DNA from: Escherichia coli
GTDB taxonomy: Bacteria; Pseudomonadota; Gammaproteobacteria; Enterobacterales; Enterobacteriaceae
NCBI GenBank assembly: GCA_005400705.1
Contig: GCA_005400705.1_4079.1
DNA length: 64,000 bases
Direction: 5' to 3' (one strand)
Below, piece after piece: positions 2,745-60,234 of this stretch; the first letter of the stretch is position 1, and the number at the start of each line of letters is the position of its first letter. The notes beneath the pieces were generated by a model. The model made no database searches. It was not told the DNA's origin and worked only from the letters and a program-made list of their open reading frames with translations. Both the position numbers and the translations under genes were made by a program.

Positions 2745-3710
2745 GTGAAAAAGCTTGATTTAAATACAATTGCCGAAGAAGTTCTGGATGAATGTTTTGC
2801 TAATGAAGAAGTCAACACACTAGAAGCCTTAGATTTCGTTGAAGATAAAGATGAAAATGAAGGTAAAGTACAAAGCAGTTTCAAATATAATATTACACTT
2901 AAGCGACCACCAAATGTTTCCAATGAAGATCTAATTCGTGATATTCAAGCTGGTATCAATGTAAAGAAAAACACTGAACTGTTAGTTCGTTACAATTATG
3001 GACTGATTATTGATGTAGCAAGTAAATGTACTTGTTATATCCCATTTGAAGATAAGATTTCATATGGTGTTGAGGGGTTCATGAGAGCACTAAAAACCTT
3101 TGATCTTAATAAGAATGTGAAGTTCATTACCTATGCTTCTTCTAGTATTTACATGACAGTTTATAACGAAAGTTCTGACGCTAACTATATGGTACACTTC
3201 CCACGTTATATGAGTGTTCATAAGATCAAAGTAAAAAGATTCTGCCAGGAATATATGCGTAAACATGGTGTTCGCCCAACTCCTGAAATAATCTCAGAGG
3301 GTACTGGGATTGAGATTCAGCATGTTAATAATTGTTTGTTATTTCAAAGCGAATACACTTCACTGGATGCACCATTAGACGGTGTTACAGATGGTACACT
3401 AGGTGACATTATTCATTCACCTGCTTCTGATTTTAACCTCAATGTTGATAGTATTCGTGCACCTTTACGTTATGCTATCAATGAACTGACTAACGAATTG
3501 AGTACTAAAGAACGTGAGATTATCCAGCGTGTTCATGGTCTAGGTGAATATGAACCTGAAACGCTTCGTGAGATTGCTGATAATGGTTTTGTTGATGATA
3601 ATGGAAAATATGTTAAATCCCGTTCATCAATACACCGAAAGTACAGTGAAGCTATGCAAAAGCTTAAGAAGCTAGTACTTGCAAAAGGGTACGAATACGA
3701 AGATTTCTAA
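2745..3710 (+). CDS. sigma-70 family RNA polymerase sigma factor-like protein
   Basis: 321 aa, GTG start with RBS aggaga; region-2-like YGVEGFMRALKTFDLNKNVKFITYASSSIY and region-4-like LSTKEREIIQRVHGLGEYEPETLREIADN...VKSRSSIHRKYSEAMQKLKKL. Confidence 0.65.
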   Translation: MKKLDLNTIAEEVLDECFANEEVNTLEALDFVEDKDENEGKVQSSFKYNITLKRPPNVSNEDLIRDIQAGINVKKNTELLVRYNYGLIIDVASKCTCYIPFEDKISYGVEGFMRALKTFDLNKNVKFITYASSSIYMTVYNESSDANYMVHFPRYMSVHKIKVKRFCQEYMRKHGVRPTPEIISEGTGIEIQHVNNCLLFQSEYTSLDAPLDGVTDGTLGDIIHSPASDFNLNVDSIRAPLRYAINELTNELSTKEREIIQRVHGLGEYEPETLREIADNGFVDDNGKYVKSRSSIHRKYSEAMQKLKKLVLAKGYEYEDF

Positions 3711-41416: not shown

Positions 41417-42054
41417 TTAAACACAAGTAGACAGGGGAAGCTCCTAGTGAACAACCTTTATGTACAGGCGAATTGTTAAAATTCAGCCTGGACAAATGCG
41501 ATCACTAGGATTCTCCCCAGGCTAAACCCCGTAATCATAGGTAGTCATAAGTAATCATATATAAACATTTATATGAGCACCGTAGAATCACAGAATGATT
41601 ATATATGATTCAGTACTGATTAGTATAGACAAGATTGCTCAAGAATGCACGGAAATGTGTGTGAATGATTCAGTACTGATATCCCACTAAGTAGGCAGAG
41701 GAAGTCTGCCGTACTTTTTAGTTTCCAAGCTCCTTTTCCATTTTTCAAATTACATCAAATGTAATCAAAAGTAATCACGCAATGATTAGTACTGAATTAT
41801 TACTTTCACCTTAATTACAATTACCCTTTTACCCTTCGGGGTAAAATTCCATTACCCCTTGAGGCTCCAGCAAAAAGTTGGTTAGTACTCCATCCTAAAT
41901 CTCGATCCTAAAAATTTTGGAGTACCTATGAAATAAAAGTTGGATCTTCGAAAGTTGAAATTTACGTTGGGACGTTTATGATTTGTGGGATATAATGATG
42001 TTTGTAGTCGGGTAGTTCTCAAGAATATCAGTACTGAATGATGAAAGAAAGCTA

Positions 42055-42410: not shown

Positions 42411-42600
42411 GATTTTGGGCGTAGTTACCCTGGATGGATTTTGGACGTAGATATGTCTAGCCCTCCAGAAGTCTGGAAGTAAAGATGGCTATCCATCTAG
42501 ACGGCTAAACGGCTAGATTTCTGGATGGCTGGATGGCTAGACGTTTGGACGGCTAAACGGCTAGATGGTTACACGTCTGGAAGTATAGACGGCTAAATCA
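42411..42600. repeat. iteron-like direct repeats
   Basis: gacggctaaacggctagat twice (42500-42518, 42548-42566); ggatggct three times; gtctggaagta twice; gattttgg(g/a)cgtag twice. Confidence 0.6.
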
Positions 42601-43337
42601 AAATTTTATTTTGTTTTTTCCAATAGTTCCCCTACCGCGTGGGGATAGTTTCCCCGCAGTATCTGGAGTTAGATTTTTCTGAATCTGGAATCATTATCTT
42701 ATAAACTGGGGGCAATGTCAACCGCCTGGACGGATATTTTTAAAAATTTTTTCAGTACTGAATTTTGGGCGTAACTATGCACCCGGTGGGCTTGAGTCTT
42801 TCTCGACTTGATGGAACTATTATACAGTACTGGAAAAATAAAGCAATACCCTGGAAGCAAAAAAGTTTTAATTAATTTGCTTGCTATCCTGGGCCGGACT
42901 ATGGTACTATATTTCAGTACTGAGAAAGTGCGTTTACCTGCTAGGGTGCGGGAGTGTATCCTTTTTTTATATCTTGAATTTTGGGCGTAATTCCGCACCC
43001 TCTGGGGTTTCCGCTTTCTCGCGTCTATGTAGTAATTATACGCTTTTTCAGGATCAAGTCAATACCTAAAAACAAAATAATTGAAAATAATTTAACGCGT
43101 TTAAACGGCCCGTAAAGCCCTGGAATGATTGGAATGGTGCAAATGTATAGCTTAGGTGTATTAATGCGTTAGAATGCGTCTGAGGCCGTTTTACGGGGTA
43201 TAGGGATGATTTGGTGGATTGATTCAGTACTGAATGATAGTACTACTATATAGAAAGATAGTTCCCCTGAATGGTTGCAGTACTGAATGATAGTTCCCCT
43301 ATATAGAAAGAAAACTATTTTAAAAGTATTTGTAGAA

Positions 43338-44790: not shown

Positions 44791-44820
44791 GCAGTTTACA
44801 AATCTTTACAATTGCCGGTA

Positions 44821-44849
44821 TTGACTTATTTTGTCAGTACTGGCATAAT
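44821..44849 (+). promoter_or_regulatory. promoter TTGACT-17-CATAAT (AGTACTGG class)
   Basis: ttgact 44821-44826, agtactggcataat. Confidence 0.45.
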
Positions 44850-45032
44850 GTATTCATTGGCAGATAAGCCGTAGCCCATAGGGTGCGGGAGTGTATCTAT
44901 AGAAAAAGTAGTTTATTACAGTTACAATTGTGCACCCGGTGGGTTAGCTGTTGTCATGGGGTATATTATACCAGTACTGGATAGTGCTGTCAATACCTTT
45001 TTACTATTCAGTACTGAAAACTATTTTTAAAA

Positions 45033-45065
45033 AGTACTTGCAAACTATGTTTAAAGGCGTATAAT
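45033..45065 (+). promoter_or_regulatory. PeSL-type promoter driving the structured element
   Basis: agtacttgcaaactatgtttaaaggcgtataat. Confidence 0.55.
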
Positions 45066-45150
45066 GTTTTACATCAGGACGGGGAACGAAATAAGTAACT
45101 TCCCGTTAAGTAGCCCAGGAGTAAGGCACACGAAAAACTCCCCTGATAAA
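45066..45150 (+). ncRNA. candidate structured small RNA, copy A (identical copy at 54907-54990)
   Basis: No ORF; closing helix atcagg...cctgat and inner hairpin acgggga...ttcccgt; about 100 nt identical in both copies. Confidence 0.35.
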
Positions 45151-45155
45151 ATAGT

Positions 45156-45183
45156 TTGACAAATGTTTTTAAAAGCGTATAAT
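45156..45183 (+). promoter_or_regulatory. sigma70-type promoter TTGACA-16-TATAAT
   Basis: ttgaca 45156-45161, tataat 45178-45183. Confidence 0.55.
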
Positions 45184-45215
45184 ACTTACATCAACTACTG
45201 AATGAGGGTTACAAA

Positions 45216-45827
45216 ATGAAAACTATCACTACTACTACTTTCGTTATGGCTTTTTCTGAATTGAACGCAGAACAACAAACGTCAGCTATCGAACTGGTTC
45301 GGGATCGGGAACGTTCAAGCGGTGATGATTTCTTTTCTGAGTCAGTGATCGAGTACTATAAAGAAACAGTACTACCAGAATATGGAATTGATGACGCTGA
45401 TTTGCAATTCAGTGGTTTTTGGTCGCAGGGTGACGGTGCATCAATCAGTACTGACCACGTTGACGCTGTGAAGTTTTTACGCAAGATTAAAGCATTAACT
45501 AAGTATCGTTCTATCCGTCACCTGCTGAATGAAGATGATTTGGCGATGAGTGTAAAGCGTTCTCACTCCCACTACTCGCATGAAAACACTGTAAGCGGGT
45601 ACATTGAATCGGGGTACACTGATTTAACCGCAAAACAAGAAACGTTAGTTAATGAGCTTGAGGAACTACTCACTGAAACTATTCGTGAATTATCCCGCAA
45701 GTTGTACCGTGATTTAGAGAATGCATATGAGGATCAATTCACTACTGAAAACATTACGGCACTGATTGAGGGTAACGAATATCAATTCAATGTTATTGAT
45801 GGCGTAGTAGAATCTATCGAATATTAA
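45216..45827 (+). CDS. hypothetical acidic protein
   Basis: 203 aa, RBS gagggt. Confidence 0.6.
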   Translation: MKTITTTTFVMAFSELNAEQQTSAIELVRDRERSSGDDFFSESVIEYYKETVLPEYGIDDADLQFSGFWSQGDGASISTDHVDAVKFLRKIKALTKYRSIRHLLNEDDLAMSVKRSHSHYSHENTVSGYIESGYTDLTAKQETLVNELEELLTETIRELSRKLYRDLENAYEDQFTTENITALIEGNEYQFNVIDGVVESIEY

Positions 45828-45883
45828 TTCAGTACTGAATCAATGGCGGGAGTGGTTCCCGCCTATAACCAGGAGTAAGCATC

Positions 45884-46117
45884 ATGATCGAACAAATTCA
45901 AACGACCACAAGCCGGAGCGGAACGAAAGTACATTACATCGCTGATACTGATAAAGGTGTACCCTATTGTGCTGTACACGTAAATACTGACGGTGACTAT
46001 TGGTTAACTGTATACGGGCGTTACTCGTTTGCTTTTAGTGCACATTGTAAGATCCTGGAAGTAGTGAAGCCTACCGGTAAGAATATCACGCCGGGAAAAT
46101 GTTTTACTAAGCACTAA
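45884..46117 (+). CDS. hypothetical protein (paralog of 47039 product)
   Basis: 77 aa; GVPYCAVHVNT.G.YW.TVYG.YSF ... PTGKNIT shared with 47039. Confidence 0.6.
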   Translation: MIEQIQTTTSRSGTKVHYIADTDKGVPYCAVHVNTDGDYWLTVYGRYSFAFSAHCKILEVVKPTGKNITPGKCFTKH

Positions 46118-46118
46118 A

Positions 46119-46185
46119 AAGTACTTGCATACTAAGTTTAAAAGCGTATAATACTTTATATCGAGGCGGGGGAATGGTTCCCGCC
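46119..46185 (+). promoter_or_regulatory. PeSL-like cassette
   Basis: aaagtacttgcatactaagtttaaaagcgtataat, hairpin ggcggggg-aatgg-ttcccgcc. Confidence 0.6.
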
Positions 46186-46203
46186 TTTACTGAGGATTAT
46201 CTA

Positions 46204-46491
46204 ATGAGCAAAGTAATTAACTATACAGTACTAAGCAAGTCATTATCTATTAGCCAGTGCACCGATGGTTTTTGGCTGTACGATGAAACGCGTGGCATGA
46301 ATTTAGCTATGCGGGAGAAAACTGCTGAGGCGGCGTATTTACAAGCCCTGGAATACTACCAGGAACGTTTAAAGGAAGTAGAAAACAATTATCAAAATTT
46401 AAAAGAGAAAGTAGATAATTTCGTTTGTCAATTCGTTGACGATGACGAGGAAGACGGGCACTACTGCAACCGTTGCGGATCTTACAATTAA
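46204..46491 (+). CDS. hypothetical protein
   Basis: 95 aa from ATG 46204; C-terminal CNRCGSYN. Confidence 0.5.
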   Translation: MSKVINYTVLSKSLSISQCTDGFWLYDETRGMNLAMREKTAEAAYLQALEYYQERLKEVENNYQNLKEKVDNFVCQFVDDDEEDGHYCNRCGSYN

Positions 46492-46554
46492 GTACTTGCA
46501 ATTAGTTTTCAGTACTGTATAATGGTTTACATCAAAGGGAGAAATGGTTCTCCC
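46491..46554 (+). promoter_or_regulatory. PeSL-like cassette
   Basis: agtacttgcaattagttttcagtactgtataat, hairpin gggaga-aatggt-tctccc. Confidence 0.6.
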
Positions 46555-46573
46555 TGGTAATGAGGAAAATAAA

Positions 46574-46795
46574 ATGGCTAATATCACTACTCTTTCCCAA
46601 CTGGAAGCACTGGTTAAATCTATGCGGGAACATGCCGACAAAATCGGCGTACAAGATCCAGCCGTTTGCTTCTGCGACGAATTGAATGATGATACCCTGG
46701 TAATAGCAGAAGTCCAGGACGTTTCTAACTATTCCTCGCGTTACACTGGCGGCGTAGCAAATAAAGGTGACTTCTGTTTATACCTTACAAAATAA
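46574..46795 (+). CDS. hypothetical protein
   Basis: 73 aa from ATG 46574, RBS gagga. Confidence 0.55.
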   Translation: MANITTLSQLEALVKSMREHADKIGVQDPAVCFCDELNDDTLVIAEVQDVSNYSSRYTGGVANKGDFCLYLTK

Positions 46796-46798
46796 CAA

Positions 46799-46836
46799 CG
46801 CGGGGAGATAATAACTCCCCGTTACTTTTTCAGTAC
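46799..46836 (+). terminator. intrinsic terminator
   Basis: cgcggggag-ataataa-ctccccg then ttacttttt. Confidence 0.6.
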
Positions 46837-46958
46837 TGAATCATTTAATAGACGGATCTCGGCACCCGGTGGGTTAGTGACTGTTTCGTCTTGATGTAGT
46901 AATTATGCCAGTACTGGATGCACTTGTCAACAATTATTTTTCAAATACTTTTTATTAA

Positions 46959-47017
46959 AATACTTGCAATTAGTTTTTAAACGCGTATAATGTTTTGCAT
47001 AGGGGGAGCGGTTCCCC
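46959..47017 (+). promoter_or_regulatory. PeSL-like cassette
   Basis: tacttgcaattagtttttaaacgcgtataat, hairpin gggga-gcggt-tcccc. Confidence 0.55.
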
Positions 47018-47038
47018 TGGTAACTAAGGAATAATAAA

Positions 47039-47275
47039 ATGCTTGAACAAATCAAATCAACGTCTTCGAATGTAACGGGAACGGTAGCACACTTTACTAG
47101 TGATGAATCGCGGGGCGTTCCCTATTGTGCTGTACATGTAAACACTGAGGGTAACTACTGGTTTACGGTTTACGGTTCATATTCATTTGGACGGCCAGGG
47201 CATCAAAAAATTCTGGATAAAGTACAGCCAACGGGTAAAAATATCACTGCTGAAATGTTTTATAAAAAATCATAA
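47039..47275 (+). CDS. hypothetical protein (paralog of 45884 product)
   Basis: 78 aa, RBS aagga. Confidence 0.6.
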   Translation: MLEQIKSTSSNVTGTVAHFTSDESRGVPYCAVHVNTEGNYWFTVYGSYSFGRPGHQKILDKVQPTGKNITAEMFYKKS

Positions 47276-47276
47276 A

Positions 47277-47339
47277 GTACTTGCAATTAGTTTTTAGTAC
47301 TGTATAATATTTTACATCGCAAGGGGGAGCGGTTCCCCC
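47277..47339 (+). promoter_or_regulatory. PeSL-like cassette
   Basis: aagtacttgcaattagtttttagtactgtataat, hairpin ggggga-gcggt-tccccc. Confidence 0.6.
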
Positions 47340-47359
47340 TGGTAACTAAGGATAATCAA

Positions 47360-47659
47360 ATGAAAATTGCAATCATCGCCCTGGCTTTATCTGTTTCCTC
47401 TTTCGCTGTTAATGCGTCATTAGATGTAAGTAGTGAAAAATTCATTCAGTGCACTGTTGCAATGACCGATGAAAGTACTGGCGAGATTGTTTTAAAGGAT
47501 TTAGAGATCCAGCCCGAAGCATTTAAAAACGGGCCGTTCCATGAAGAAGACGAAAAAGGTAGCACGACAATTTATTACGATGCAAGTACTAAACGCGGTT
47601 CGGTCACTGTTATGGATACTGAGAAAGTAACTCATACTGGCGTTATTAATTGCCGTTGA
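47360..47659 (+). CDS. secreted protein (signal peptide)
   Basis: 99 aa, signal peptide MKIAIIALALSVSSFAVNA. Confidence 0.55.
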   Translation: MKIAIIALALSVSSFAVNASLDVSSEKFIQCTVAMTDESTGEIVLKDLEIQPEAFKNGPFHEEDEKGSTTIYYDASTKRGSVTVMDTEKVTHTGVINCR

Positions 47660-47680
47660 TAGATACTACGGGGTAACATC

Positions 47681-47911
47681 ATGACTAAGCGAATTGTTTT
47701 ACTTAACGAAAGCAGTACTACACAACTACTTAACGCCGTGCATTATGATATTGAAACGAGCGTTAATCTTATCAGTACTGTAGTACTGTTGGACACTGGA
47801 AAGGTCGCCAATGATAAAGCGATTGCAGGTATACTAACGGATCTTGAGCCTGGTAGCAGTGCACCAATAACGTTAAATGGTAAAGTGTTTAATATTTTAC
47901 TCACTGATTAA
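47681..47911 (+). CDS. hypothetical protein
   Basis: 76 aa. Confidence 0.5.
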   Translation: MTKRIVLLNESSTTQLLNAVHYDIETSVNLISTVVLLDTGKVANDKAIAGILTDLEPGSSAPITLNGKVFNILLTD

Positions 47912-47917
47912 GTACAT

Positions 47918-47941
47918 AGCCCACCTGGTGGGCTTTTTTGT
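47918..47941 (+). terminator. intrinsic terminator
   Basis: agcccacc-t-ggtgggct then T6. Confidence 0.7.
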
Positions 47942-47992
47942 TTTTGTAGTATCGTAGTACTGAGATACTTTGAAAATAGTTTTAAAAAATAG

Positions 47993-48020
47993 TTGACATT
48001 ACCGCAGAAAAGCGTAGAAT
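47993..48020 (+). promoter_or_regulatory. sigma70-type promoter TTGACA-16-TAGAAT
   Basis: ttgaca 47993-47998, tagaat 48015-48020. Confidence 0.5.
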
Positions 48021-48143
48021 GTATTACATCAAGACGGGGAGCACTAAGTAGACCGCCAGTAAGTCGAACGAAAAACTGGACACGTCGAGAAAACTTTGAT
48101 ACACTAATAAACGTAAACTAAACTTTAATTGAGGATTTATAAA

Positions 48144-48626
48144 ATGGCTAATGTAAAATCATTCATCAAAGCACTGGTAGCAAATGAAACTAACGTCGCG
48201 GCAGAGATCCTGGCTGATCTGGATAACGATACCATGAAAGCGGTACGCAATAATTTTAACATCGCTTATAGTACTGCGAAAGAACTACAAGCAAATAAAG
48301 CGGCAGAAATTGAAGCGGCAAAGGCGGCCCGTGAAGCAGAACTACAAGCAACAATTGAAAGTATCCAGGCGGCAGTAGTTGGATTGGATCTGGAAGTAGT
48401 TACAGAGATGGCACAAAAAGCCCTGGCGGTTAAGTATGGGGAAGATAAGCCGGAATCTAAGCCTAAAAAATGGATTCAAAAACGTGTAGCGGTAGTACTG
48501 GACAACGGGGAAGAATATCTGATTCCGGTGCGTGGTAACTGCATTGCGGTAGTACTGGATGCGATTAACTCCAGTGGTATGACTCGCGAGGAATGGATCG
48601 AAGCTCATCGCAAAGTTGAAGCATAA
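48144..48626 (+). CDS. hypothetical protein
   Basis: 160 aa from ATG 48144 (RBS gagga); alternative start 48129. Confidence 0.55.
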   Translation: MANVKSFIKALVANETNVAAEILADLDNDTMKAVRNNFNIAYSTAKELQANKAAEIEAAKAAREAELQATIESIQAAVVGLDLEVVTEMAQKALAVKYGEDKPESKPKKWIQKRVAVVLDNGEEYLIPVRGNCIAVVLDAINSSGMTREEWIEAHRKVEA

Positions 48627-48647
48627 CAATTAAAGTACTGAATCACT

Positions 48648-48675
48648 AGCCCACCTTAAACGGTGGGCTTTTTTG
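48648..48675 (+). terminator. intrinsic terminator
   Basis: agcccacc-ttaaac-ggtgggct then T6. Confidence 0.7.
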
Positions 48676-48823
48676 TGTTTATCGTTTACCAGGCCACCAG
48701 CACCGCCTAGAAACGATTCTAACGCATTAAACTGATTATCTGATGCATTGCCCTAGCTGGTGGCGTTAAGGCTGTAAGAACGCGATTGAGAGCGTTTAAA
48801 GTATTTTGCAAAAAGTAATAAAA

Positions 48824-48888
48824 AGTACTTGCACGATTAAGAGATTAGCGTATAATGTTTTACATCGAGAGGGGGAAACGGTTCTCCT
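48824..48888 (+). promoter_or_regulatory. PeSL-like cassette
   Basis: aaagtacttgcacgattaagagattagcgtataat, hairpin ggggaa-acgg-ttctcc. Confidence 0.55.
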
Positions 48889-48911
48889 TCCAAATCAAAG
48901 GAATTAAAACA

Positions 48912-49139
48912 ATGGCTATCGTAATCACTCGCGTAACTGGTACTACTGGCAATTCTTCTACTGTTGCTGTAATTACTAATAAGAAAGGTGCGGAATTGCA
49001 TTTTGCAATGGATAAATGGGCCGTTAATGAGTTCGGTCAGTGGGCAAGTGTAGCATACATTGAAACCTATCAAGTGCCGTCGATTAGTTTAACTGATTTG
49101 GGCGTTGAGCGTATCCTTTGCCTGGATGAATTAAATTAA
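48912..49139 (+). CDS. hypothetical protein
   Basis: 75 aa from ATG 48912, RBS aaggaa. Confidence 0.55.
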   Translation: MAIVITRVTGTTGNSSTVAVITNKKGAELHFAMDKWAVNEFGQWASVAYIETYQVPSISLTDLGVERILCLDELN

Positions 49140-49140
49140 A

Positions 49141-49206
49141 AAAGTACTTGCAAAGTAAATCAGATAAAGTATAATACATTACATCAAGGGGAGAAATGGT
49201 TCTCCC
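49141..49206 (+). promoter_or_regulatory. PeSL-like cassette
   Basis: aaagtacttgcaaagtaaatcagataaagtataat, hairpin gggaga-aatggt-tctccc. Confidence 0.6.
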
Positions 49207-49225
49207 TGATAATGAGGAAACTAAT

Positions 49226-49369
49226 ATGAAAACTTGTCAATGTGGTAAAAAATCTATTACTGGTTTAAAGCGGGGCGTTGCACTTTGCCAGTACCATTAT
49301 AATTTACAAGTATGGGGTAAAGAATGGGCCGACCAGGTGGAAGCAGCAAAGAAAGCAAAAAGTAAGTAA
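49226..49369 (+). CDS. small Cys-containing protein
   Basis: 47 aa (below cutoff), RBS gagga; CQCG...C..H. Confidence 0.45.
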   Translation: MKTCQCGKKSITGLKRGVALCQYHYNLQVWGKEWADQVEAAKKAKSK

Positions 49370-49388
49370 AAATATTATCACAGTACTA

Positions 49389-49417
49389 TTGACATAGTTT
49401 GATAGTACTGGCATAAT
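49389..49417 (+). promoter_or_regulatory. promoter TTGACA-17-CATAAT (AGTACTGG class)
   Basis: ttgaca 49389-49394, gatagtactggcataat. Confidence 0.5.
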
Positions 49418-49450
49418 AGATTTTATCAAGACAACTAAGAGGAAATTAAA

Positions 49451-49795
49451 ATGGCTAATATCAACACTATCGCAAAACAAAATATCAACCTGTCTTCTGT
49501 TGAAGTTGTACATATTGCCGCTCGGCGTTGGTTCCAGGCTTCATATGGTAACACTTATTTCTCTTTAAGTGTAGACGTAGAAATTGATGGTAATTTTATT
49601 GAAGTAGTAAACGTGCCGTTCCAATATGGATACGGGGATCACTTTGACACTGTAGCAATGGAAGAATTTAGCAAGGTTATTAATATGGAAGATAAGGAGT
49701 TTACACGCGGATCGTACCTTTCACGTTTTTGCCGTGATAATAATATCACTGTTTACAGTTCGGTAACTGATGTTAAACGCAAAAAAGATCTTTAA
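49451..49795 (+). CDS. hypothetical protein (paralog of 55420 product)
   Basis: 114 aa; shared features incl. C-terminal DVKRKKD. Confidence 0.55.
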   Translation: MANINTIAKQNINLSSVEVVHIAARRWFQASYGNTYFSLSVDVEIDGNFIEVVNVPFQYGYGDHFDTVAMEEFSKVINMEDKEFTRGSYLSRFCRDNNITVYSSVTDVKRKKDL

Positions 49796-49875
49796 TTCGC
49801 TTTACTTTATGCAGATACTTTGATATAGTGTCTGCATAGGGGAAAGAAATTAAATTAACTTAAGAGGAACGTATA

Positions 49876-50145
49876 ATGAAAAATATCAGTACTTTAATCG
49901 ATGCAGGTACACATGTTCGGCGGTCAATGGTTGCAACCAGTACTACAAAACAAGTAGCGAGCGGTTATCTTGTATTTGTGCACGATGGTAAACTCCTGGA
50001 ACGTTCAATCAATTTTGATGTTAAAAACAATTGCCGTTTTATTATCTTTCGCCGTGAACAATATAAGATCGACATTCCAGCGAAGCCCATTAGCGGTGCG
50101 TACAACGTGCAATCATTGTTTGAGCGTCAACCATACACCTATTAA
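49876..50145 (+). CDS. hypothetical protein
   Basis: 89 aa, RBS agagga. Confidence 0.5.
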   Translation: MKNISTLIDAGTHVRRSMVATSTTKQVASGYLVFVHDGKLLERSINFDVKNNCRFIIFRREQYKIDIPAKPISGAYNVQSLFERQPYTY

Positions 50146-50196
50146 TCAAAACATCGTTAGCGGTTGATTTAGGCCGCTTATATTGAGGATTATACC

Positions 50197-50469
50197 ATGA
50201 ACGTTAATCAAGTACTGAATGAGATCGAAAGCATCATTAAACCGATGAAGCGTACTGATGCTATGTTAACACCGGAAGAATGCCGCCTATATGAGCGTTA
50301 TAGCGTCGAACAAGTCCAGGCAATGGCTATGGCTACCACAGCCGTTAAACCGCCTGAGAATGCGTTACAGGACGTTACAGGGGATTATATCATCAATCCA
50401 GTACTAGGGAAGATGGCTGCAATCACCGAAGATCAACAAGACTACTTAAGCCAGTACTTAAAAGGTTAA
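50197..50469 (+). CDS. hypothetical protein
   Basis: 90 aa, RBS gagga. Confidence 0.5.
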   Translation: MNVNQVLNEIESIIKPMKRTDAMLTPEECRLYERYSVEQVQAMAMATTAVKPPENALQDVTGDYIINPVLGKMAAITEDQQDYLSQYLKG

Positions 50470-50474
50470 TTAAT

Positions 50475-50684
50475 ATGCTTACTGTACAGGATAAGATCGA
50501 CATCTTAAAGGTTAATATGTATGTGATTGATGCCGTACCTGGTAAAGTATTTGCATACGATGATAGTACTGTAAGCGATTTCTACTATAGCCAGGACGTG
50601 GGGGATCTTTCTGTACAGTCGGTTATTGAAAACGTAGTTAATGCAGCGTATGAGCATTTACTTTCAAATAGTACTTGCAATTAG
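50475..50684 (+). CDS. hypothetical protein
   Basis: 69 aa. Confidence 0.45.
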   Translation: MLTVQDKIDILKVNMYVIDAVPGKVFAYDDSTVSDFYYSQDVGDLSVQSVIENVVNAAYEHLLSNSTCN

Positions 50685-50734
50685 TTTTTAAACGCGTATA
50701 ATGTTTTACATGAAGGGGAGAAATGATTCTCCCC
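50670..50734 (+). promoter_or_regulatory. PeSL-like cassette
   Basis: agtacttgcaattagtttttaaacgcgtataat, hairpin ggggagaa-atga-ttctcccc. Confidence 0.6.
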
Positions 50735-50753
50735 ACTAATTAAGGAATATGAA

Positions 50754-50900
50754 ATGAAAGCATCAAAAAAGAGTAATACCAAGAAAGCATGTTCACCTTT
50801 CGCTGGGGTATTCCCTTTACGTTTCGTTGATGAAGTGGTTTCCTACCCGCCGGGCCTTACTCCTGAGATGGTAGAAAGTTTGCGTAAATCTAAAAAATAG
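50754..50900 (+). CDS. small basic protein
   Basis: 48 aa (below cutoff), RBS aagga. Confidence 0.4.
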   Translation: MKASKKSNTKKACSPFAGVFPLRFVDEVVSYPPGLTPEMVESLRKSKK

Positions 50901-50963
50901 TACTTGCAATTAGTTTTCAGTACTGTATAATGTTTTACATGAAGGGGAGAAATGATTCTCCCC
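50899..50963 (+). promoter_or_regulatory. PeSL-like cassette
   Basis: agtacttgcaattagttttcagtactgtataat, hairpin ggggagaa-atga-ttctcccc. Confidence 0.6.
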
Positions 50964-50981
50964 AATAACAGGAGAAACAAA

Positions 50982-51134
50982 ATGAAACAATACAACGCTC
51001 GGTTTGATGTTACTATCGGTAACGGCAAAGGTCAATTCTCTTTCAGTACTCGCAAAAGTTATACAGAAAACTTCCTGCGTAATTGTGCACTGACCGCCGC
51101 TCAAATTAAACATTACTTTCAGGCTAAAAAATGA
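50982..51134 (+). CDS. small protein
   Basis: 50 aa from ATG 50982, RBS aggaga. Confidence 0.45.
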   Translation: MKQYNARFDVTIGNGKGQFSFSTRKSYTENFLRNCALTAAQIKHYFQAKK

Positions 51135-51220
51135 AATCATTAGCTTACTATAGTTCGGCCCTGGTCGGTACATTGATCGCGGCATTGTTAGTAACCTATC
51201 TATTCTTTATGGTGATTTAA
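51131..51220 (+). CDS. small hydrophobic peptide
   Basis: 29 aa, ATGA overlap, single TM helix. Confidence 0.25.
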   Translation: MKSLAYYSSALVGTLIAALLVTYLFFMVI

Positions 51221-51364
51221 ATGAATCCAACAGGTTTAAATTATAAAAGTTGTTCGGCGTTTACGAAAGCAAATAAAGCGAATGCACGTAAAGCGAAAGT
51301 ACAGGAATACATCAAGCAAGGCATGACGCGAAAGGCGGCGATTCTAAAAGCTAAAAATAAATGA
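51221..51364 (+). CDS. small basic protein
   Basis: 47 aa, start abuts upstream stop. Confidence 0.35.
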   Translation: MNPTGLNYKSCSAFTKANKANARKAKVQEYIKQGMTRKAAILKAKNK

Positions 51365-51371
51365 AAAAAGT

Positions 51372-51402
51372 GGTTGACTCCGGTCAGCCATTTTGCTATT
51401 AT
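51372..51402 (+). terminator. fused terminator-promoter (GGTTGAC-TCCG-GTCAGCC)
   Basis: Hairpin 51372-51389, TTTT, tattat 51397-51402. Confidence 0.6.
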
Positions 51403-51488
51403 ATATTCATTGAGAGATAGCTCACTAGCCCACAGGGTGCATAAGTGTATCTATTATATAAGTATTGAGTACTGAAAACTATTTTTAA

Positions 51489-51554
51489 AAAGTACTTGCA
51501 AACTATCTCAATTGGCGTATAATGTTTTACATCGCAAGGGGAAACGGTTTCCCC
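51489..51554 (+). promoter_or_regulatory. PeSL-like cassette
   Basis: aaagtacttgcaaactatctcaattggcgtataat, palindromic stem ggggaaac-g-gtttcccc. Confidence 0.6.
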
Positions 51555-51574
51555 TGGTAATAAGGAAACGAATC

Positions 51575-51916
51575 ATGACTATCTCAATTGCTCAATCTAA
51601 CTTTGAAAACGAAATCATCGCCCAGGCACTGCGTTTAAATGATGGTCGGGCCGAAATTAATTACGGTTTCAATTCAGGCGGTTGCGAAAAATATCAGTAC
51701 TTTGTAACGGCTGATGGCGGTGTCCTGGGGATCAATACAGTTATTGTAAACATTCAGAAAATTAATTTCAATGATCCAGAAGATAGCCAGTTTTACATCA
51801 CGGGCGTGAACGTGAACTATGAGGATGATTATCTAACTGATGATCACACTGGCGAGAAGTTAGAAAGTGCATACGGTGAAGATGATTATCAGTCCGGTCC
51901 AGAAGATTTTGAATAA
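51575..51916 (+). CDS. hypothetical acidic protein
   Basis: 113 aa from ATG 51575, RBS aagga. Confidence 0.55.
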   Translation: MTISIAQSNFENEIIAQALRLNDGRAEINYGFNSGGCEKYQYFVTADGGVLGINTVIVNIQKINFNDPEDSQFYITGVNVNYEDDYLTDDHTGEKLESAYGEDDYQSGPEDFE

Positions 51917-51930
51917 TATTAAAAAATAGT

Positions 51931-51990
51931 TTGACAATAGATTATAGTACTGTATAATAAGTTACATCAAGGGGAGAAATGATTCTCCCC
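51931..51990 (+). promoter_or_regulatory. PeSL-like cassette (TTGACA-16-TATAAT)
   Basis: ttgaca 51931-51936, tataat 51953-51958, hairpin ggggagaaatgattctcccc 51971-51990. Confidence 0.6.
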
Positions 51991-52010
51991 ACTAACAAAG
52001 AGAAAACAAA

Positions 52011-52223
52011 ATGGCTAATATCTGCACTGTACTGAAAAATGCAAAACAAGTTTTATTTTCTGATCATGAAAATTTCAACAAGGATATTACGGGCGTTCGG
52101 AATATCAAAGATGTAAAAAGTGTTATGGGTATCTATTGCAATATGAAACGTGTTGGTACGTTCGGCGACAAAGTACTATACCAGGCAGGGGATTATAACT
52201 TTACATTAACCATTATCAATTAA
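52011..52223 (+). CDS. hypothetical protein
   Basis: 70 aa. Confidence 0.55.
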   Translation: MANICTVLKNAKQVLFSDHENFNKDITGVRNIKDVKSVMGIYCNMKRVGTFGDKVLYQAGDYNFTLTIIN

Positions 52224-52241
52224 AATATATTACCAGTACTA

Positions 52242-52270
52242 TTAACAATGATTGATAGTACTGGCATAAT
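52242..52270 (+). promoter_or_regulatory. promoter TTAACA-17-CATAAT (AGTACTGG class)
   Basis: gatagtactggcataat. Confidence 0.45.
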
Positions 52271-52314
52271 AACTTTTATCAACAGTAGTTAACTTAACAA
52301 AAGAGAGAAACAAA

Positions 52315-52458
52315 ATGATCGCACTAGATTCATTCATCGACGCAGTACTGGCAAAAACTGGCGAGGATCTGACCGCAGAACAATACGCGATGATCGAACA
52401 ATGTCAGCAAAACGGTAAATCGGTGAAAGATACTGTTAAGATTATCCGCAAGATGTAA
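52315..52458 (+). CDS. small protein
   Basis: 47 aa (below cutoff), RBS agagag. Confidence 0.4.
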   Translation: MIALDSFIDAVLAKTGEDLTAEQYAMIEQCQQNGKSVKDTVKIIRKM

Positions 52459-52563
52459 GATTATAGCCCACTGGTTAACGCTGGTGGGCTATAATTCATT
52501 ACCCTATACAATGCCAGTACTCAACCGTTTATCTCGTTAGAATGCGTTACAGGACGTTTACCA

Positions 52564-52761
52564 ATGATTAGCATGAAATCAGTACAAAAACAAATAGAAA
52601 CATTATCAAAAATTAAACGTAAACAGTACTCGTTAGAATATACAATCAATGGTAACTATCATCTAATGAAAGAGAATAATTTTATCGTCATTGATGAATC
52701 ATTGCAAGTTATTAGTATAGTACTGAAAGCATTAATCAATGACAGAAAAAAATTAAAATAA
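52564..52761 (+). CDS. hypothetical protein
   Basis: 65 aa. Confidence 0.45.
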   Translation: MISMKSVQKQIETLSKIKRKQYSLEYTINGNYHLMKENNFIVIDESLQVISIVLKALINDRKKLK

Positions 52762-52765
52762 TCTA

Positions 52766-52794
52766 TTGACAATATCCTCCAGTACTGGCATAAT
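52766..52794 (+). promoter_or_regulatory. promoter TTGACA-17-CATAAT (AGTACTGG class)
   Basis: ttgaca 52766-52771, agtactggcataat. Confidence 0.5.
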
Positions 52795-52856
52795 ACTTAC
52801 ATCAAGACGAGAACGTCACCAACCCATAGGGTGCACAAATGTAACTATATAATATC

Positions 52857-52929
52857 GATCAATAAATGATCAAAAAAGTACTGGATCAATTTAGCATAAG
52901 GCGTATAATTCTGATCAATTCTTGATCAA
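52857..52929. repeat. cluster of five (T)GATCAA repeats (GATC sites)
   Basis: gatcaa at 52857, 52868, 52884, 52913, 52924, flanking a tataat at 52903-52908. Confidence 0.5.
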
Positions 52930-53090
52930 AGGCAATATACGCAGTTGAATTTATATAGACAGTACAAAGGCGTTACTATCCGTGGTAATGCTGGTGGATA
53001 TGTAGTATCATATGGTTTGAATAAGATAAACACTAGTAGTATTATTGTAGCATTACAGTACTATAGTATTTTTATAATGAGGTTAAAATA

Positions 53091-53348
53091 ATGGCAGTAG
53101 GATACGCGAAAGACGGGGCCGAACAAGACGAGATTCATGCAGTGATTCAGGCCGCCGTTAACCACGCTAGAAAGCAAATTAACGCACAAAGAGAATCACT
53201 GGTACATTGCCTCGACTGCGGCGATAAAATTCCTGAGAATCGACGCCAGGCCGTTATAGGGTGCATGTATTGTATTACTTGCCAGGAGGATCATGATAGT
53301 ACTTTTAAAAGAGATCCGCGTAATTGTTGGCATAGATCTATGAGATAA
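53091..53348 (+). CDS. TraR/DksA-family C4 zinc-finger protein
   Basis: 85 aa; CLDCGDKIPENRRQAVIGCMYCITCQ gives CxxC-x17-CxxC as in TraR/DksA. Confidence 0.65.
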   Translation: MAVGYAKDGAEQDEIHAVIQAAVNHARKQINAQRESLVHCLDCGDKIPENRRQAVIGCMYCITCQEDHDSTFKRDPRNCWHRSMR

Positions 53349-53354
53349 AAAGTA

Positions 53355-53383
53355 ATTGACAGTACTGAAAGATAGTGTATAAT
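53355..53383 (+). promoter_or_regulatory. sigma70-type promoter TTGACA-17-TATAAT
   Basis: ttgaca 53355-53360, tataat 53378-53383. Confidence 0.55.
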
Positions 53384-53412
53384 GTTTTATATCTTAACTG
53401 AGGATAGAAATC

Positions 53413-53769
53413 ATGGGAATACAACATATCACGCGTACTACTGACAATGGCGAGATCACTGGTTATCAAGTACAGGGCAAAGTAGCACAATTGCAGTACT
53501 GGTTTGTTAAACGTGGAATCATTGCACCGGATCTTGATTATGACCGTGTAGCGTTTATTGATTCTCTTTATGTTGATCCTGATAGTCGGGGCAATGGTGA
53601 AGGTAACGAATTAATGAATGCCTTTATCGATGCCGCCGATGATTCAGATTGTATCATCTTAGAATGCGATACGGGAGAAGATAACGCCTTTAATCTTAAA
53701 GAATGGTACGAAGGTTTCGGATTCGAGGTATTGATAGATAGTGAATATCCTATCATGATTTTATCATAG
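53413..53769 (+). CDS. hypothetical protein, possibly GNAT-like acetyltransferase
   Basis: 118 aa; IDSLYVDPDSRGNGEGNELMNAFIDAA loosely resembles GNAT motif A. Confidence 0.5.
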   Translation: MGIQHITRTTDNGEITGYQVQGKVAQLQYWFVKRGIIAPDLDYDRVAFIDSLYVDPDSRGNGEGNELMNAFIDAADDSDCIILECDTGEDNAFNLKEWYEGFGFEVLIDSEYPIMILS

Positions 53770-53830
53770 TACTTGCATTTAGTTTTCAGTACTGTTATAG
53801 TACTTGCATCAAGGGGAAACATCTTCCCCT
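53768..53830 (+). promoter_or_regulatory. PeSL-like cassette (degenerate -10)
   Basis: agtacttgcatttagttttcagtactgttatag, hairpin aggggaa-acatc-ttcccct. Confidence 0.45.
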
Positions 53831-53847
53831 ACTAAGAGGAAATAAAA

Positions 53848-54036
53848 ATGGAAAACTTATCAAGTATTTTAGTACAAGATGATTTCGGTAATCCTGGAAG
53901 TGCTATCATTGTTCGGGGTAATAAAGCAACGTTTGTTATTGCTGGTGGACCCGTACAGCGTAGCATTAAAAATAATGCTGTTACCATTAATAATGTACGC
54001 TATCGCTTAGATAAAGAATTGATTCATAAACTGTAA
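53848..54036 (+). CDS. hypothetical protein
   Basis: 62 aa, RBS agagga. Confidence 0.5.
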   Translation: MENLSSILVQDDFGNPGSAIIVRGNKATFVIAGGPVQRSIKNNAVTINNVRYRLDKELIHKL

Positions 54037-54044
54037 AAAAGTAC

Positions 54045-54104
54045 TGGACAATAGATTATAGTACTGTATAATAAGTTACATGAAGGGGAGAAATGATTCT
54101 CCCC
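54045..54104 (+). promoter_or_regulatory. PeSL-like cassette
   Basis: tggaca-16-tataat (54067-54072), hairpin ggggagaaatgattctcccc. Confidence 0.55.
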
Positions 54105-54122
54105 AGTACTGAGGAAAGAAAA

Positions 54123-54335
54123 ATGCAAGGTCAACTAATCGTTCGTAAATGGTCTGATACTAACGCTAAACCGTGGGATGTACAATACATCGGCCCCAAT
54201 GGTGAATCCAGATATCAACCAGGTGTAACGCATAGTACTGAGCAATTCGCCGCCGCTCATCGTGAACGTCTGTTACAATCAATGCAGCAAGGTTCCGGTG
54301 AAAAATTCATTCAGGATCATTGGCTGAAAGATTAA
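54123..54335 (+). CDS. hypothetical protein
   Basis: 70 aa from ATG 54123, RBS gagga. Confidence 0.55.
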   Translation: MQGQLIVRKWSDTNAKPWDVQYIGPNGESRYQPGVTHSTEQFAAAHRERLLQSMQQGSGEKFIQDHWLKD

Positions 54336-54336
54336 A

Positions 54337-54400
54337 AAGTACTTGCACAGTACTGAATAAAGTGTATAATGTTTTATATCGAGAGGGGAATAGTTCCCCT
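54337..54400 (+). promoter_or_regulatory. PeSL-like cassette
   Basis: aaagtacttgcacagtactgaataaagtgtataat, hairpin gaggggaa-tag-ttcccctc. Confidence 0.6.
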
Positions 54401-54421
54401 CCTAACAAAAAGGAAAGTATA

Positions 54422-54595
54422 ATGATCCAAGTAGAATTATCAGTACTGAAAGATCTATTTTATCGGTTAGGTACTAATGGCGAGTATCCTAAAAGTGATA
54501 CCGCAAAACTTTTTGTATCACTCGACTTATGGCAACGCGAACAATTAGTAATGTCGTGGCGTAAAGGTAAAGCAGATCGCGAGGTGAAAGCATGA
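54422..54595 (+). CDS. small protein
   Basis: 57 aa from ATG 54422, RBS aaggaaag. Confidence 0.45.
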   Translation: MIQVELSVLKDLFYRLGTNGEYPKSDTAKLFVSLDLWQREQLVMSWRKGKADREVKA

Positions 54596-54741
54596 AAGAA
54601 TTCTTATTTGAAGTAGTGTTTCAAGGTGTCGGTAATAACCAACTGATTCGATCAAGTGGTTATAATGTTAACCAGGCATGGAATAACATTAAACAAATGT
54701 ACCCTAACGCTATCACCTATCGCAACCCGAAAGAAGTTTAA
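54592..54741 (+). CDS. small protein
   Basis: 49 aa, ATGA overlap. Confidence 0.35.
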   Translation: MKEFLFEVVFQGVGNNQLIRSSGYNVNQAWNNIKQMYPNAITYRNPKEV

Positions 54742-54755
54742 AAATAATTGAAAAA

Positions 54756-54789
54756 GGGATTGACTCCGGTCAGTCCCTTTGCTATTATA
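54756..54789 (+). terminator. fused terminator-promoter (GGGATTGAC-TCCG-GTCAGTCCC)
   Basis: Hairpin 54756-54777, TTT, tattat 54784-54789. Confidence 0.6.
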
Positions 54790-54873
54790 TACGCATAGAA
54801 ACAAATCAGCCCACCGGGTGCATAAATGTATCTATTGTTTGCTGGTGGCTAGTACTGAAAACTATTTTTAAAA

Positions 54874-54906
54874 AGTACTTGCATTGTACTTAGAATCAAG
54901 TATAAT
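54874..54906 (+). promoter_or_regulatory. PeSL-type promoter driving the structured element
   Basis: aaagtacttgcattgtacttagaatcaagtataat. Confidence 0.55.
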
Positions 54907-54990
54907 GTTTTACATCAGGACGGGGAACGAAATAAGTAACTTCCCGTTAAGTAGCCCAGGAGTAAGGCACACGAAAAACTCCCCTGATAA
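54907..54990 (+). ncRNA. candidate structured small RNA, copy B
   Basis: Sequence identical to 45066-45150. Confidence 0.35.
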
Positions 54991-54996
54991 AATAGT

Positions 54997-55024
54997 TTGA
55001 CAATAGAAAGTAAACGAGTATAAT
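54997..55024 (+). promoter_or_regulatory. sigma70-type promoter TTGACA-16-TATAAT
   Basis: ttgaca 54997-55002, tataat 55019-55024. Confidence 0.55.
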
Positions 55025-55057
55025 ACTTACATCAACCACTGATAAGGAAACATTAAA

Positions 55058-55333
55058 ATGCGGATTCTACTGACAGCTAACGAAATCGAACAAGTACTGA
55101 CTACTAACCTGGAACAATGGAAACGTGATGCAGATATCCAGGCGGTTCAATGGCTTAACGATAAGTTAACGCCGGATGACTTAAGCAAGATTGTAGATCC
55201 TCAATTCTACGAAGATATCCACGACACCGCGTTAAGCGTCGAGGATGTACTTGATAAGCACTACATTGATACTGATTTACAGGTTTACGGTCGTAAAAAC
55301 TTTATCACTATCCACGACATTTACAATAATTAA
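55058..55333 (+). CDS. hypothetical acidic protein
   Basis: 91 aa, RBS aaggaaa. Confidence 0.55.
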   Translation: MRILLTANEIEQVLTTNLEQWKRDADIQAVQWLNDKLTPDDLSKIVDPQFYEDIHDTALSVEDVLDKHYIDTDLQVYGRKNFITIHDIYNN

Positions 55334-57742: not shown

Positions 57743-57756
57743 AAAAGATTAAAAAA

Positions 57757-57790
57757 GGGATTGACTCCGGTCAGTCCCTTTGCTATTATA
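57757..57790 (+). terminator. fused terminator-promoter (GGGATTGAC-TCCG-GTCAGTCCC)
   Basis: Hairpin 57757-57778, TTT, tattat 57785-57790. Confidence 0.6.
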
Positions 57791-60184: not shown

Positions 60185-60201
60185 CAAAAAAGAATAAAAA
60201 A

Positions 60202-60234
60202 GGGATTGACTCAGGTCAGTCCCTTTGCTATTAT
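60202..60234 (+). terminator. fused terminator-promoter (GGGATTGAC-TCAG-GTCAGTCCC)
   Basis: Hairpin 60202-60223, TTT, tattat 60229-60234. Confidence 0.6.

Follow-up and report, generated by a model that had tools for sequence, protein, structure and literature searches.

A segment of about 100 nt that recurs without a single change, carries no apparent open reading frame (ORF) and lies between promoters in a region where the flanking genes differ raises the question of what is being conserved: a small RNA (sRNA), a regulatory leader, a site on the DNA, or the remains of a gene. We address this question for a stretch of 64,000 nt from an Escherichia coli assembly (GenBank GCA_005400705.1, contig GCA_005400705.1_4079.1), referred to throughout as the window, which as judged by sequence is the early region, near the leading end of the genome, of a PBECO4/121Q-like jumbo coliphage (Asteriusvirus). 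The two identical copies, A and B, are transcribed 5' leaders situated between tandem early promoters of host RNA polymerase, and each contains a conserved, covarying sense-strand RNA motif that is present in promoter-proximal early leaders of many enterobacterial phages. A third, divergent copy (C) lies between them, and the core of the motif represents an apparently undescribed RNA family that includes the A1-A2 leader of phage T7.

A covarying RNA core shared with the T7 early leader

The shared core spans approximately 36 nt and comprises the sequence UAAGUAG, a helix of 3 bp (S1') and a helix of 4-5 bp (P3) arranged as in a pseudoknot, and the A-rich loop ACGAAAAA. The corresponding structure, '[[[..((((....]]]..........))))', was tested on 20 and then on 43 distinct cores. 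Among the 20, 99.3% of cells were paired, as against 73.5% in shuffles and 18-36% with slid partners; among the 43, the respective values were 99.7%, 79.9% and 17-34%, and in both sets alike both partners vary in four of the seven pairs. The versions of helix P3 are GGAG/CUCC, GGUG/CACC, CCAG/CUGG, CCUG/CAGG and CUUG/CAAG, as well as CCUG/CGGG with a G-U pair, and the CUUG/CAAG version arose separately, on unrelated backgrounds, in the myovirus LTH01 and in a T3-like podovirus (L061). At the central position of S1', 42 of the 43 variants have A-U, U-A or C-G, and the G-U pairs are compatible with the sense strand only. When the IMG/VR collection was scanned with the helix bases left free, 68 distinct sequences were recovered, with all four P3 pairs formed in 60 and at most two in the other eight, a bimodal outcome that fits a real family plus chance matches. 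Structure extends beyond the core itself. In 60% of distinct flanks (20% of shuffles), a hairpin of 5 bp or more, whose arms vary widely in sequence, ends 0-2 nt before it, and an outer helix closes all inspected myovirus copies in lineage-specific form (AUCAGG/CCUGAU, GACG/CGUC, GACGG/CCGUC, CGGC/GCCG or GCGGC/GUCGC).

Two covariance models, of the kind that a preliminary description of the segment had proposed as a check, were used to establish the distribution of the motif, and it was through such a search that copy C came to light, which in turn led to the T7 leader. The first (R1) was built only from 16 variants of the A/B type, whose consensus fold has 95.8% of cells paired. It scores copy A at 106.7 bits, matches copy C at 48031-48089 (E = 8e-4), and beyond this finds leaders of T7-like phages and of phages Munch, LTH01 and Hallingskeid. 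The second (R2), for which the 43 cores served as input, detects three copies and no more in the window, with E about 1e-13 (copy A core, 50.2 bits, E = 4e-13; copy C, 52.7 bits, E = 7e-14), the next match having E = 0.3. In podoviruses it finds one copy per leader, with E-values of 1e-14 to 1e-18, and no second copy 3' of A2 or A3.

Similarity at the nucleotide level leads to the same phages. With copy C as the query, blastn matched Yersinia phage phiA1122 at 553-587 (91% identity), the jumbo phages 7t3, Munch, fENko-Kae01 and Hallingskeid (of Salmonella, Klebsiella and Erwinia), and the Vequintavirinae phage LTH01. The homologous stretch of T7, nt 551-586, lies between the annotated promoter A1 (+1 at 498) and the -35 of A2, and its core reads UAAGUAG-ACAG-CCUG-AUAAG-UCGC-ACGAAAAA-CAGG. 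This T7 segment in turn matched 486 phage records; those fetched belong to the Studiervirinae, Slopekvirinae and Melnykvirinae, with hosts in Escherichia, Klebsiella, Salmonella, Yersinia, Enterobacter, Citrobacter, Serratia, Cronobacter and Aeromonas. One IMG/VR contig (L081) is Pantoea phage LIMEzero. In all, the core was found in three subfamilies of Autographiviridae, several jumbo phages, Vequintavirinae and Stephanstirmvirinae. As a separate observation, the whole T7 A1-A2 leader (nt 498-625; L032) folds much better than shuffles (z = -3.7), its fold comprising a hairpin at the 5' terminus (+2 to +36), another of CCGG/CCGG, and helix P3. The T7 A1 transcript begins with AUCGAGAGGG, as do many cassettes of the window; between 43370 and 59320, many share this predicted initial transcribed sequence (AUCGAGAGGG...), followed by a GGGGA.../...UCCCC hairpin.

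No match was found in 5,426 E. coli genomes that would indicate a host origin. A strict pattern scan of species-representative bacterial genomes returned only a T3-like phage contig and three helix-less chance matches, and a metagenome scan returned only Asteriusvirus-like contigs and one chance match. Rfam 15 gave no match at the gathering score across the window, nothing relevant at E up to 10 on 44950-45250, and, for the leaders of T7 and phiA1122, none at E up to 1; ARAGORN found no tRNA or tmRNA anywhere in the window. Neither Rfam nor the papers searched record a function for the T7 segment, and the literature yielded only papers in which T7 template sequence is printed and the motif goes undescribed; older subscription papers fall outside this coverage, and a prior mention in them is possible.

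The position of the core is as consistent as its structure. It is promoter-proximal and belongs to the direct terminal repeat or the leading genome end. In 72 of 87 distinct loci, the start of a promoter with a score of 10/12 or more falls within the 90 nt 3' of the motif, compared with 8% of random stretches of the promoter-rich window, and the offset is clustered at 2 nt (as in most T7-likes), 14-17 nt (14 nt in copies A and B) and 21-28 nt. In 42 podovirus loci, a boxA (YGCUCUUUA) occurs in the same untranslated leader, 17-430 nt downstream; in LIMEzero-type and Cronobacter phages it is just 17-37 nt from the motif.

Anatomy, variation and setting of the window copies

The features of the three copies are collected in Table 1. 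The + strand contains two exact occurrences of a 102-nt string, 45060-45161 and 54901-55002, and no others; no match appeared among 100 shuffles, and none is expected by chance. The preliminary description had thus correctly seen an identical segment, with intervals one base off at three of the four ends. Similarity between A and B reaches 45010-45201 versus 54851-55042 at 90%, and the spacers of both flanking promoters differ (repeat family D9). These promoters, which had also been recognized, are of the sigma-70 type at both copies. The one upstream of copy A belongs to a promoter repeat family of more than 20 copies; the -35 of its counterpart at copy B scores under the threshold of the promoter scan. 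Transcription is predicted to start at A45073 (copy A), A54914 (copy B) and A48028 (copy C), the first of these because it lies 7 nt from the -10, which is the spacing of the A1 start annotated in T7.

Table 1. Coordinates of the three motif copies, their promoters and adjoining genes in the window
Feature	Position	Strand	Description and basis
Copy A upstream early promoter	45038-45065	+	-35 TTGCAA 45038-45043, 16-nt spacer, -10 TATAAT 45060-45065; promoter scan
Copy A folded leader domain	45073-45147	+	outer helix AUCAGG 45073-45078 with CCUGAU 45142-45147, enclosing P2 and core
Copy A hairpin P2	45079-45106	+	ACGGGGA 45079-45085 with UUCCCGU 45100-45106; variable 14-nt loop
Copy A conserved core, candidate H-type pseudoknot	45107-45141	+	covariation, model R2, T7 homology
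Core part, unpaired UAAGUA	45107-45112
Core part, helix S1'	45113-45115 with 45125-45127		GCC/GGC
Core part, helix P3	45118-45121 with 45138-45141		GGAG/CUCC
Core part, A-rich L3 loop	45128-45137		ACACGAAAAA
Copy A downstream promoter	45156-45183	+	TTGACA-16-TATAAT, 12/12; starts 14 nt 3' of helix P3; promoter scan
Copy A downstream gene	45216-45827	+	203 aa, phrog_5162, function unknown; ATG 45216
Copy C promoter	47993-48020	+	TTGACA-16-TAGAAT; just 3' of terminator 47918-47934
Copy C, divergent, without P2	48028-48090	+	outer helix GACG 48033-48036 with CGUC 48083-48086
Copy C core	48045-48079	+	P3 CCAG/CUGG, S1' GAC/GUC
Copy B upstream promoter	54879-54906	+	-35 TTGCAT, -10 TATAAT 54901-54906; sequence and promoter repeat family
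Copy B folded leader domain	54914-54988	+	identical to copy A (copy A coordinates +9841); core 54948-54982
Copy B downstream promoter	54997-55024	+	TTGACA-16-TATAAT, 12/12; promoter scan
Copy B downstream gene	55058-55333	+	91 aa, phrog_14947, function unknown; ATG 55058

Between the element and the next gene, no terminator-like site was found in either copy A or copy B. Because the sequence instead runs into the next promoter and gene, the element is best described as the 5' domain of the transcript from the upstream promoter, rather than a stand-alone sRNA gene. Of the two alternatives originally offered, an sRNA or a long regulatory leader, the notion of a structured sense-strand RNA stands, and that of an independent sRNA gene does not; the segment is a domain of an mRNA 5' leader, precisely the long 5' untranslated region (5'UTR) that the preliminary description had set against its own proposal, and a discrete RNA would require processing. 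Copy C similarly is the 5'UTR of a gene starting at 48145.

The segment has a minimum-free-energy fold of -19.4 kcal/mol (z = -2.6), and this contains both helices previously noted, ACGGGGA/UUCCCGU closed by AUCAGG/CCUGAU. In copies A and B the closing helix pairs the predicted first six transcribed bases (+1 to +6) with the 3' boundary of the element. What had been missed is the covarying core that these hairpins accompany, together with the third copy and the T7 homology. The stem of P2 is retained among homologues by G-U changes, its apical part being replaced in phage EJP2. The GGAG of copies A and B, which resembles a Shine-Dalgarno sequence, reads CCAG in copy C, and its partner CUCC reads CUGG. 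The unpaired segments UAAGUA(G), UAA and A(C/U)GAAAAA are conserved in fixed register in all three copies. An additional pairing is available to copy A only, in which GUAGCCC (45110-45116) can pair with GGGUUAC (45205-45211), overlapping the Shine-Dalgarno sequence of the 203-aa gene; it appears in the minimum-free-energy fold of the full leader of copy A and was not seen for copy B.

The preliminary description had taken the perfect identity of the copies as an argument for function, a point that weakens on comparison with other phages. The two copies of 121Q differ in hairpin P2, the copy-A orthologue of EJP2 is only about 80% like copy B, and one metagenomic phage carries two different haplotypes. 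Copies within one genome tend to share haplotypes, and the identity in the window therefore fits recent duplication or gene conversion. The EJP2 copy-A orthologue (L013:10343-10412) is distinctive in other respects: it has ATG where all others have ACG, its replaced P2 carries a GAGA loop, and the second promoter that comes after it is a different one, with its own stem-loop.

More informative is the comparison among related phages, another check proposed at the outset, which places the element of 75-80 nt at 88-100% identity in Asteriusvirus, Justusliebigvirus (outra, muut, EmilieFrey) and Vequintavirinae (A73, W70, A7_1, A5-4), in addition to the core in T7-likes. Among these phages the upstream promoters vary and the downstream genes represent five mutually unrelated families without assigned function, and thus no gene-specific regulation is suggested; the proteins of the upstream genes are likewise all of unknown function. 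The neighbours are also less conserved than the element. The 203-aa protein shows 71% amino-acid identity between the window and EJP2, and adjoining proteins of outra and A7_1 show 72%, with an element that is about 90% identical to the window copy in both. The product of the gene downstream of copy B has 97% amino-acid identity with its counterpart in Justusliebigvirus muut.

The region shares 99% identity with Escherichia phage vB_EcoM_phAPEC6, 96-99% with some 30 other PBECO4-like jumbo phages, and about 94% with 121Q. Where records have mapped ends, 3.4-3.7 kb separate the element from the left one, and a single record annotates it inside the direct terminal repeats; a terminal repeat length of about 21 kb has been reported (PMC13070987). 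Colinearity with fEgEco12 (element at 3396) would put window position 41,680 close to the left physical end of the genome, and an array of 8-nt period (GGATGGCT / AGACGGCT) at 42435-42594 would then sit just inside the terminal repeat. The interval from 42 to 60 kb contains more than 20 repeats of an early promoter and 5' stem-loop before small orphan genes, and several other structured features were observed there. Upstream of copy A, the ORF-free interval 44791-45037 is better conserved than the downstream gene among the window, 121Q and the divergent EJP2. Within it lie a promoter on the + strand (TTGACT-17-CATAAT, 44821-44849) and a long inverted repeat, GCCCATAGGGTGC...GCACCCGGTGGGT, and a minus-strand promoter of perfect consensus (TTGACA-17-TATAAT with TG, 44993 to 44965) faces back into that repeat, giving a convergent promoter pair that flanks a structured segment of about 100 nt. 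A composite terminator/promoter occurs four times (51367-51402, 54753-54788, 57754-57789 and 60199-60234) as a 12-bp hairpin, AAAGGGATTGAC-TCCG-GTCAGTCCCTTT, whose stem contains the -35 (TTGACT) of a TTGACT-17-TATTAT promoter. Finally, a motif CCCAYMGGGTGC...GTATCTAT (family D13) occurs six times in early intergenic regions, at 42938, 44875, 51429, 52823, 54810 and 57811.

Possible functions of the motif

The reading that we favor, with a probability of roughly 55%, is that the segment works as RNA through its fold, our leading guess being a leader module that binds a host factor in the manner of the phage put and nut sites. The conserved unpaired bases would then form a docking surface for a conserved host factor, encountered co-transcriptionally at the start of infection, the likely target being the elongating host polymerase or the nascent transcript. 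The motif could in this way promote processivity or antitermination, as do HK022 put and the RNA part of nut and rrn sites. Such a cis-acting role on polymerase or nascent transcript is favored because of the position of the motif and the company it keeps with boxA in podoviruses.

Several considerations weigh against this reading. The function assigned to the motif is purely what we infer, and the pseudoknot itself, in the sense of both helices formed at once, is a candidate structure in which S1' is just 3 bp. The sequences are kin by descent and horizontal transfer, such that independent covariation events are fewer than the cell counts suggest, and the retrieval pattern fixed several loop bases, making loop invariance partly a matter of construction. 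In the early region of the window boxA is not above chance, and the myovirus copies, including all three here, have none nearby. The A2 and A3 transcripts of T7-likes lack the motif, which would limit any effect in cis to A1 transcripts, and the units that it heads in the window stop at ordinary strong terminators (46800, 48648, 56257), with no evident read-through. Moreover, a strong promoter almost always follows directly, a feature that a role like that of put or nut leaves unexplained.

This last feature is the natural starting point for the most serious competitor, a stable trans-acting non-coding RNA (an sRNA, decoy or sponge) made by the upstream promoter, the gene having a promoter of its own. 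Cleavage in the AU-rich stretch that follows, and exonuclease trimming to the outer helix, would yield an RNA of about 75 nt with paired ends, able to titrate or inhibit a host factor (e.g., a nuclease, Rho, Hfq/S1 or a defense protein) in the first minutes of infection. The promoter-motif-promoter layout of the 72 loci and the closed ends fit such a processed RNA almost as well as they do the leader module. In particular, the outer helix joins the predicted +1 to +6 to the 3' boundary, and other myovirus copies are closed by different helix sequences; the motif sits at the leading end of the genome; and its loops are conserved across unrelated phage families with common hosts. In T7, RNase III cuts off the A1 leader at R0.3, and the motif there does become part of a discrete non-coding RNA. 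On the other hand, no terminator is present, and copy C and the LIMEzero-type copies lie in a gene's only 5'UTR with no strong second promoter. No complementary target was identified, and neither E. coli nor the species-representative bacterial genomes yielded a homologue hinting at a mimicked molecule. On balance we consider a trans-acting RNA less likely than the leader module, while regarding it as the alternative that deserves most attention.

The remaining readings are all unlikely. It is improbable that the segment acts at the level of DNA as an upstream element of the downstream promoter (an UP element, A-tract bend or Fis-type site), its RNA having no role. An A-tract, GAAAAA, does lie 6 bp upstream of the A2 -35 in T7-likes, and most loci have a strong promoter after the motif, at the clustered offsets described. 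Yet neither a binding site nor a bend predicts free base-pair covariation, including G-U pairs compatible with one strand only; the distance to the -35 ranges from 2 to more than 40 nt, and some copies have no good downstream promoter.

Still less probable is a vestigial, "empty" cassette carried along by recombination between promoters, of the promoter early stem-loop (PeSL) type, in which a 5' stem-loop, a ribosome-binding site (AGGAG) and a decayed start (ACG) would remain from a deleted gene. The idea of a decayed ribosome-binding site and start was attractive at first and was dropped when GGAG turned out to be one of several forms taken by a covarying helix. The layout does resemble that of neighboring cassettes, in having a stem-loop and then CCAGGAGTAAG, followed by ACG in place of the ATG found elsewhere (families D10 and D11); EJP2 copy A has ATG at this position, and occurrence in at least five gene contexts is as for shuffled cassettes. 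Against this, the GGAG becomes GGUG, CCAG, CCUG or CUUG, always with a compensating change 20 nt downstream, and conservation of the motif extends from T7-like podoviruses to jumbo myoviruses and exceeds that of the adjacent genes. The R2 E-values in podoviruses counter chance similarity to the T7-likes.

A small protein or leader peptide is scarcely credible: a 31-aa ORF is mechanically listed at 45064-45159 and a 9-codon ORF could begin at the ACG at 45130, 8 nt after a Shine-Dalgarno-like sequence, but the former starts inside the -10 hexamer, 5' of the predicted transcript start, homologue indels of 2, 3, 4 and 8 nt break its frame, ACG is a very poor start codon, and stop positions and peptide vary between copies, all of which bears out the earlier view of the segment as free of ORFs.

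A wider proposal encompasses more than one of these mechanisms, and we advance it tentatively, granting it rather less than an even chance. An RNA pseudoknot in the first transcript from the DNA leading end of T7 and many unrelated virulent enterobacterial phages may bind a conserved host component (RNA polymerase with its elongation factors, a nuclease or a defense protein) and so reprogram or protect early phage expression, constituting a takeover device that has spread horizontally between podoviruses and jumbo myoviruses. If this is true, the T7 early leader, which is among the most studied of DNA sequences, carries an unannotated functional RNA common to jumbo, rV5-like and phAPEC8-like phages. 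This would suggest a common step of host takeover at the level of RNA, made by host polymerase before any phage protein exists. The motif would also mark early leaders and the leading genome end for annotators of enterobacterial phages, and the promoter cassettes of plastic regions could be seen to carry an RNA payload in addition to orphan genes.

Relationship to known systems

The arrangement of the window recalls the PeSL elements of T4-type phages, strong sigma-70 promoters with stem-loops that mediate modular shuffling and, in one subclass, have the stem-loop 3' of the -10; their stem-loops reportedly terminate or attenuate transcription and lack sequence conservation outside the hairpin, and recombination between cassettes gives rise to mini-circles (Arbiol et al. 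2010, PMC2839356; Comeau et al. 2014, PMC4122927). From 42 to 60 kb the window has sigma-70-like promoters, AT-rich upstream, with adjacent stem-loops before orphan genes, in agreement with that definition, and the mosaicism of an element that three phage groups carry in five or more gene contexts is consistent with shuffling. The element differs in being a specific candidate pseudoknot with conserved loops common to unrelated phage families, and its host phage is not T4-type.

With HK022 put, lambda nut and the boxB-boxA-boxC sites of rrn operons, the motif has in common a promoter-proximal structured RNA in an untranslated early leader transcribed by host polymerase, and in podoviruses it shares that leader with boxA. 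It departs from put, which is two stem-loops rather than a pseudoknot, and the window copies have no boxA; by this analogy, antitermination by the motif is only putative. In topology it approaches the preQ1-I and SAM-II riboswitch aptamers, which are likewise of H-type (a short 5' helix, a second helix formed by the loop, and an A-rich strand) and about 35 nt in length. Unlike these aptamers, the motif has no Rfam match at E up to 10 and no expression platform, and it precedes a promoter instead of a ribosome-binding site or terminator. Phage PhiTE provides an example of another kind in pseudo-ToxI, a phage RNA mimic of a type III antitoxin whose pseudoknot is able to neutralize a host protein. 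Both would be phage RNA pseudoknots with the potential to neutralize a host protein, the motif being without a repeat array and having no known toxin partner.

The closest relationship, and the one of homology at the level of sequence, is with the T7 A1-A2 leader and its counterparts in T3, K1F, phiA1122, and the KP34-like, LIMEzero-like and Cronobacter podoviruses. In the T7-likes the next -35 starts 2-3 nt past the motif, a separate hairpin caps the 5' end and boxA lies further downstream, whereas in window copies A and B an outer helix that includes the predicted +1 encloses the motif, the -35 is 14 nt away and boxA is absent. Both nevertheless present the same two helices, on the sense strand, 3' of a sigma-70 early promoter and just 5' of the next -35.

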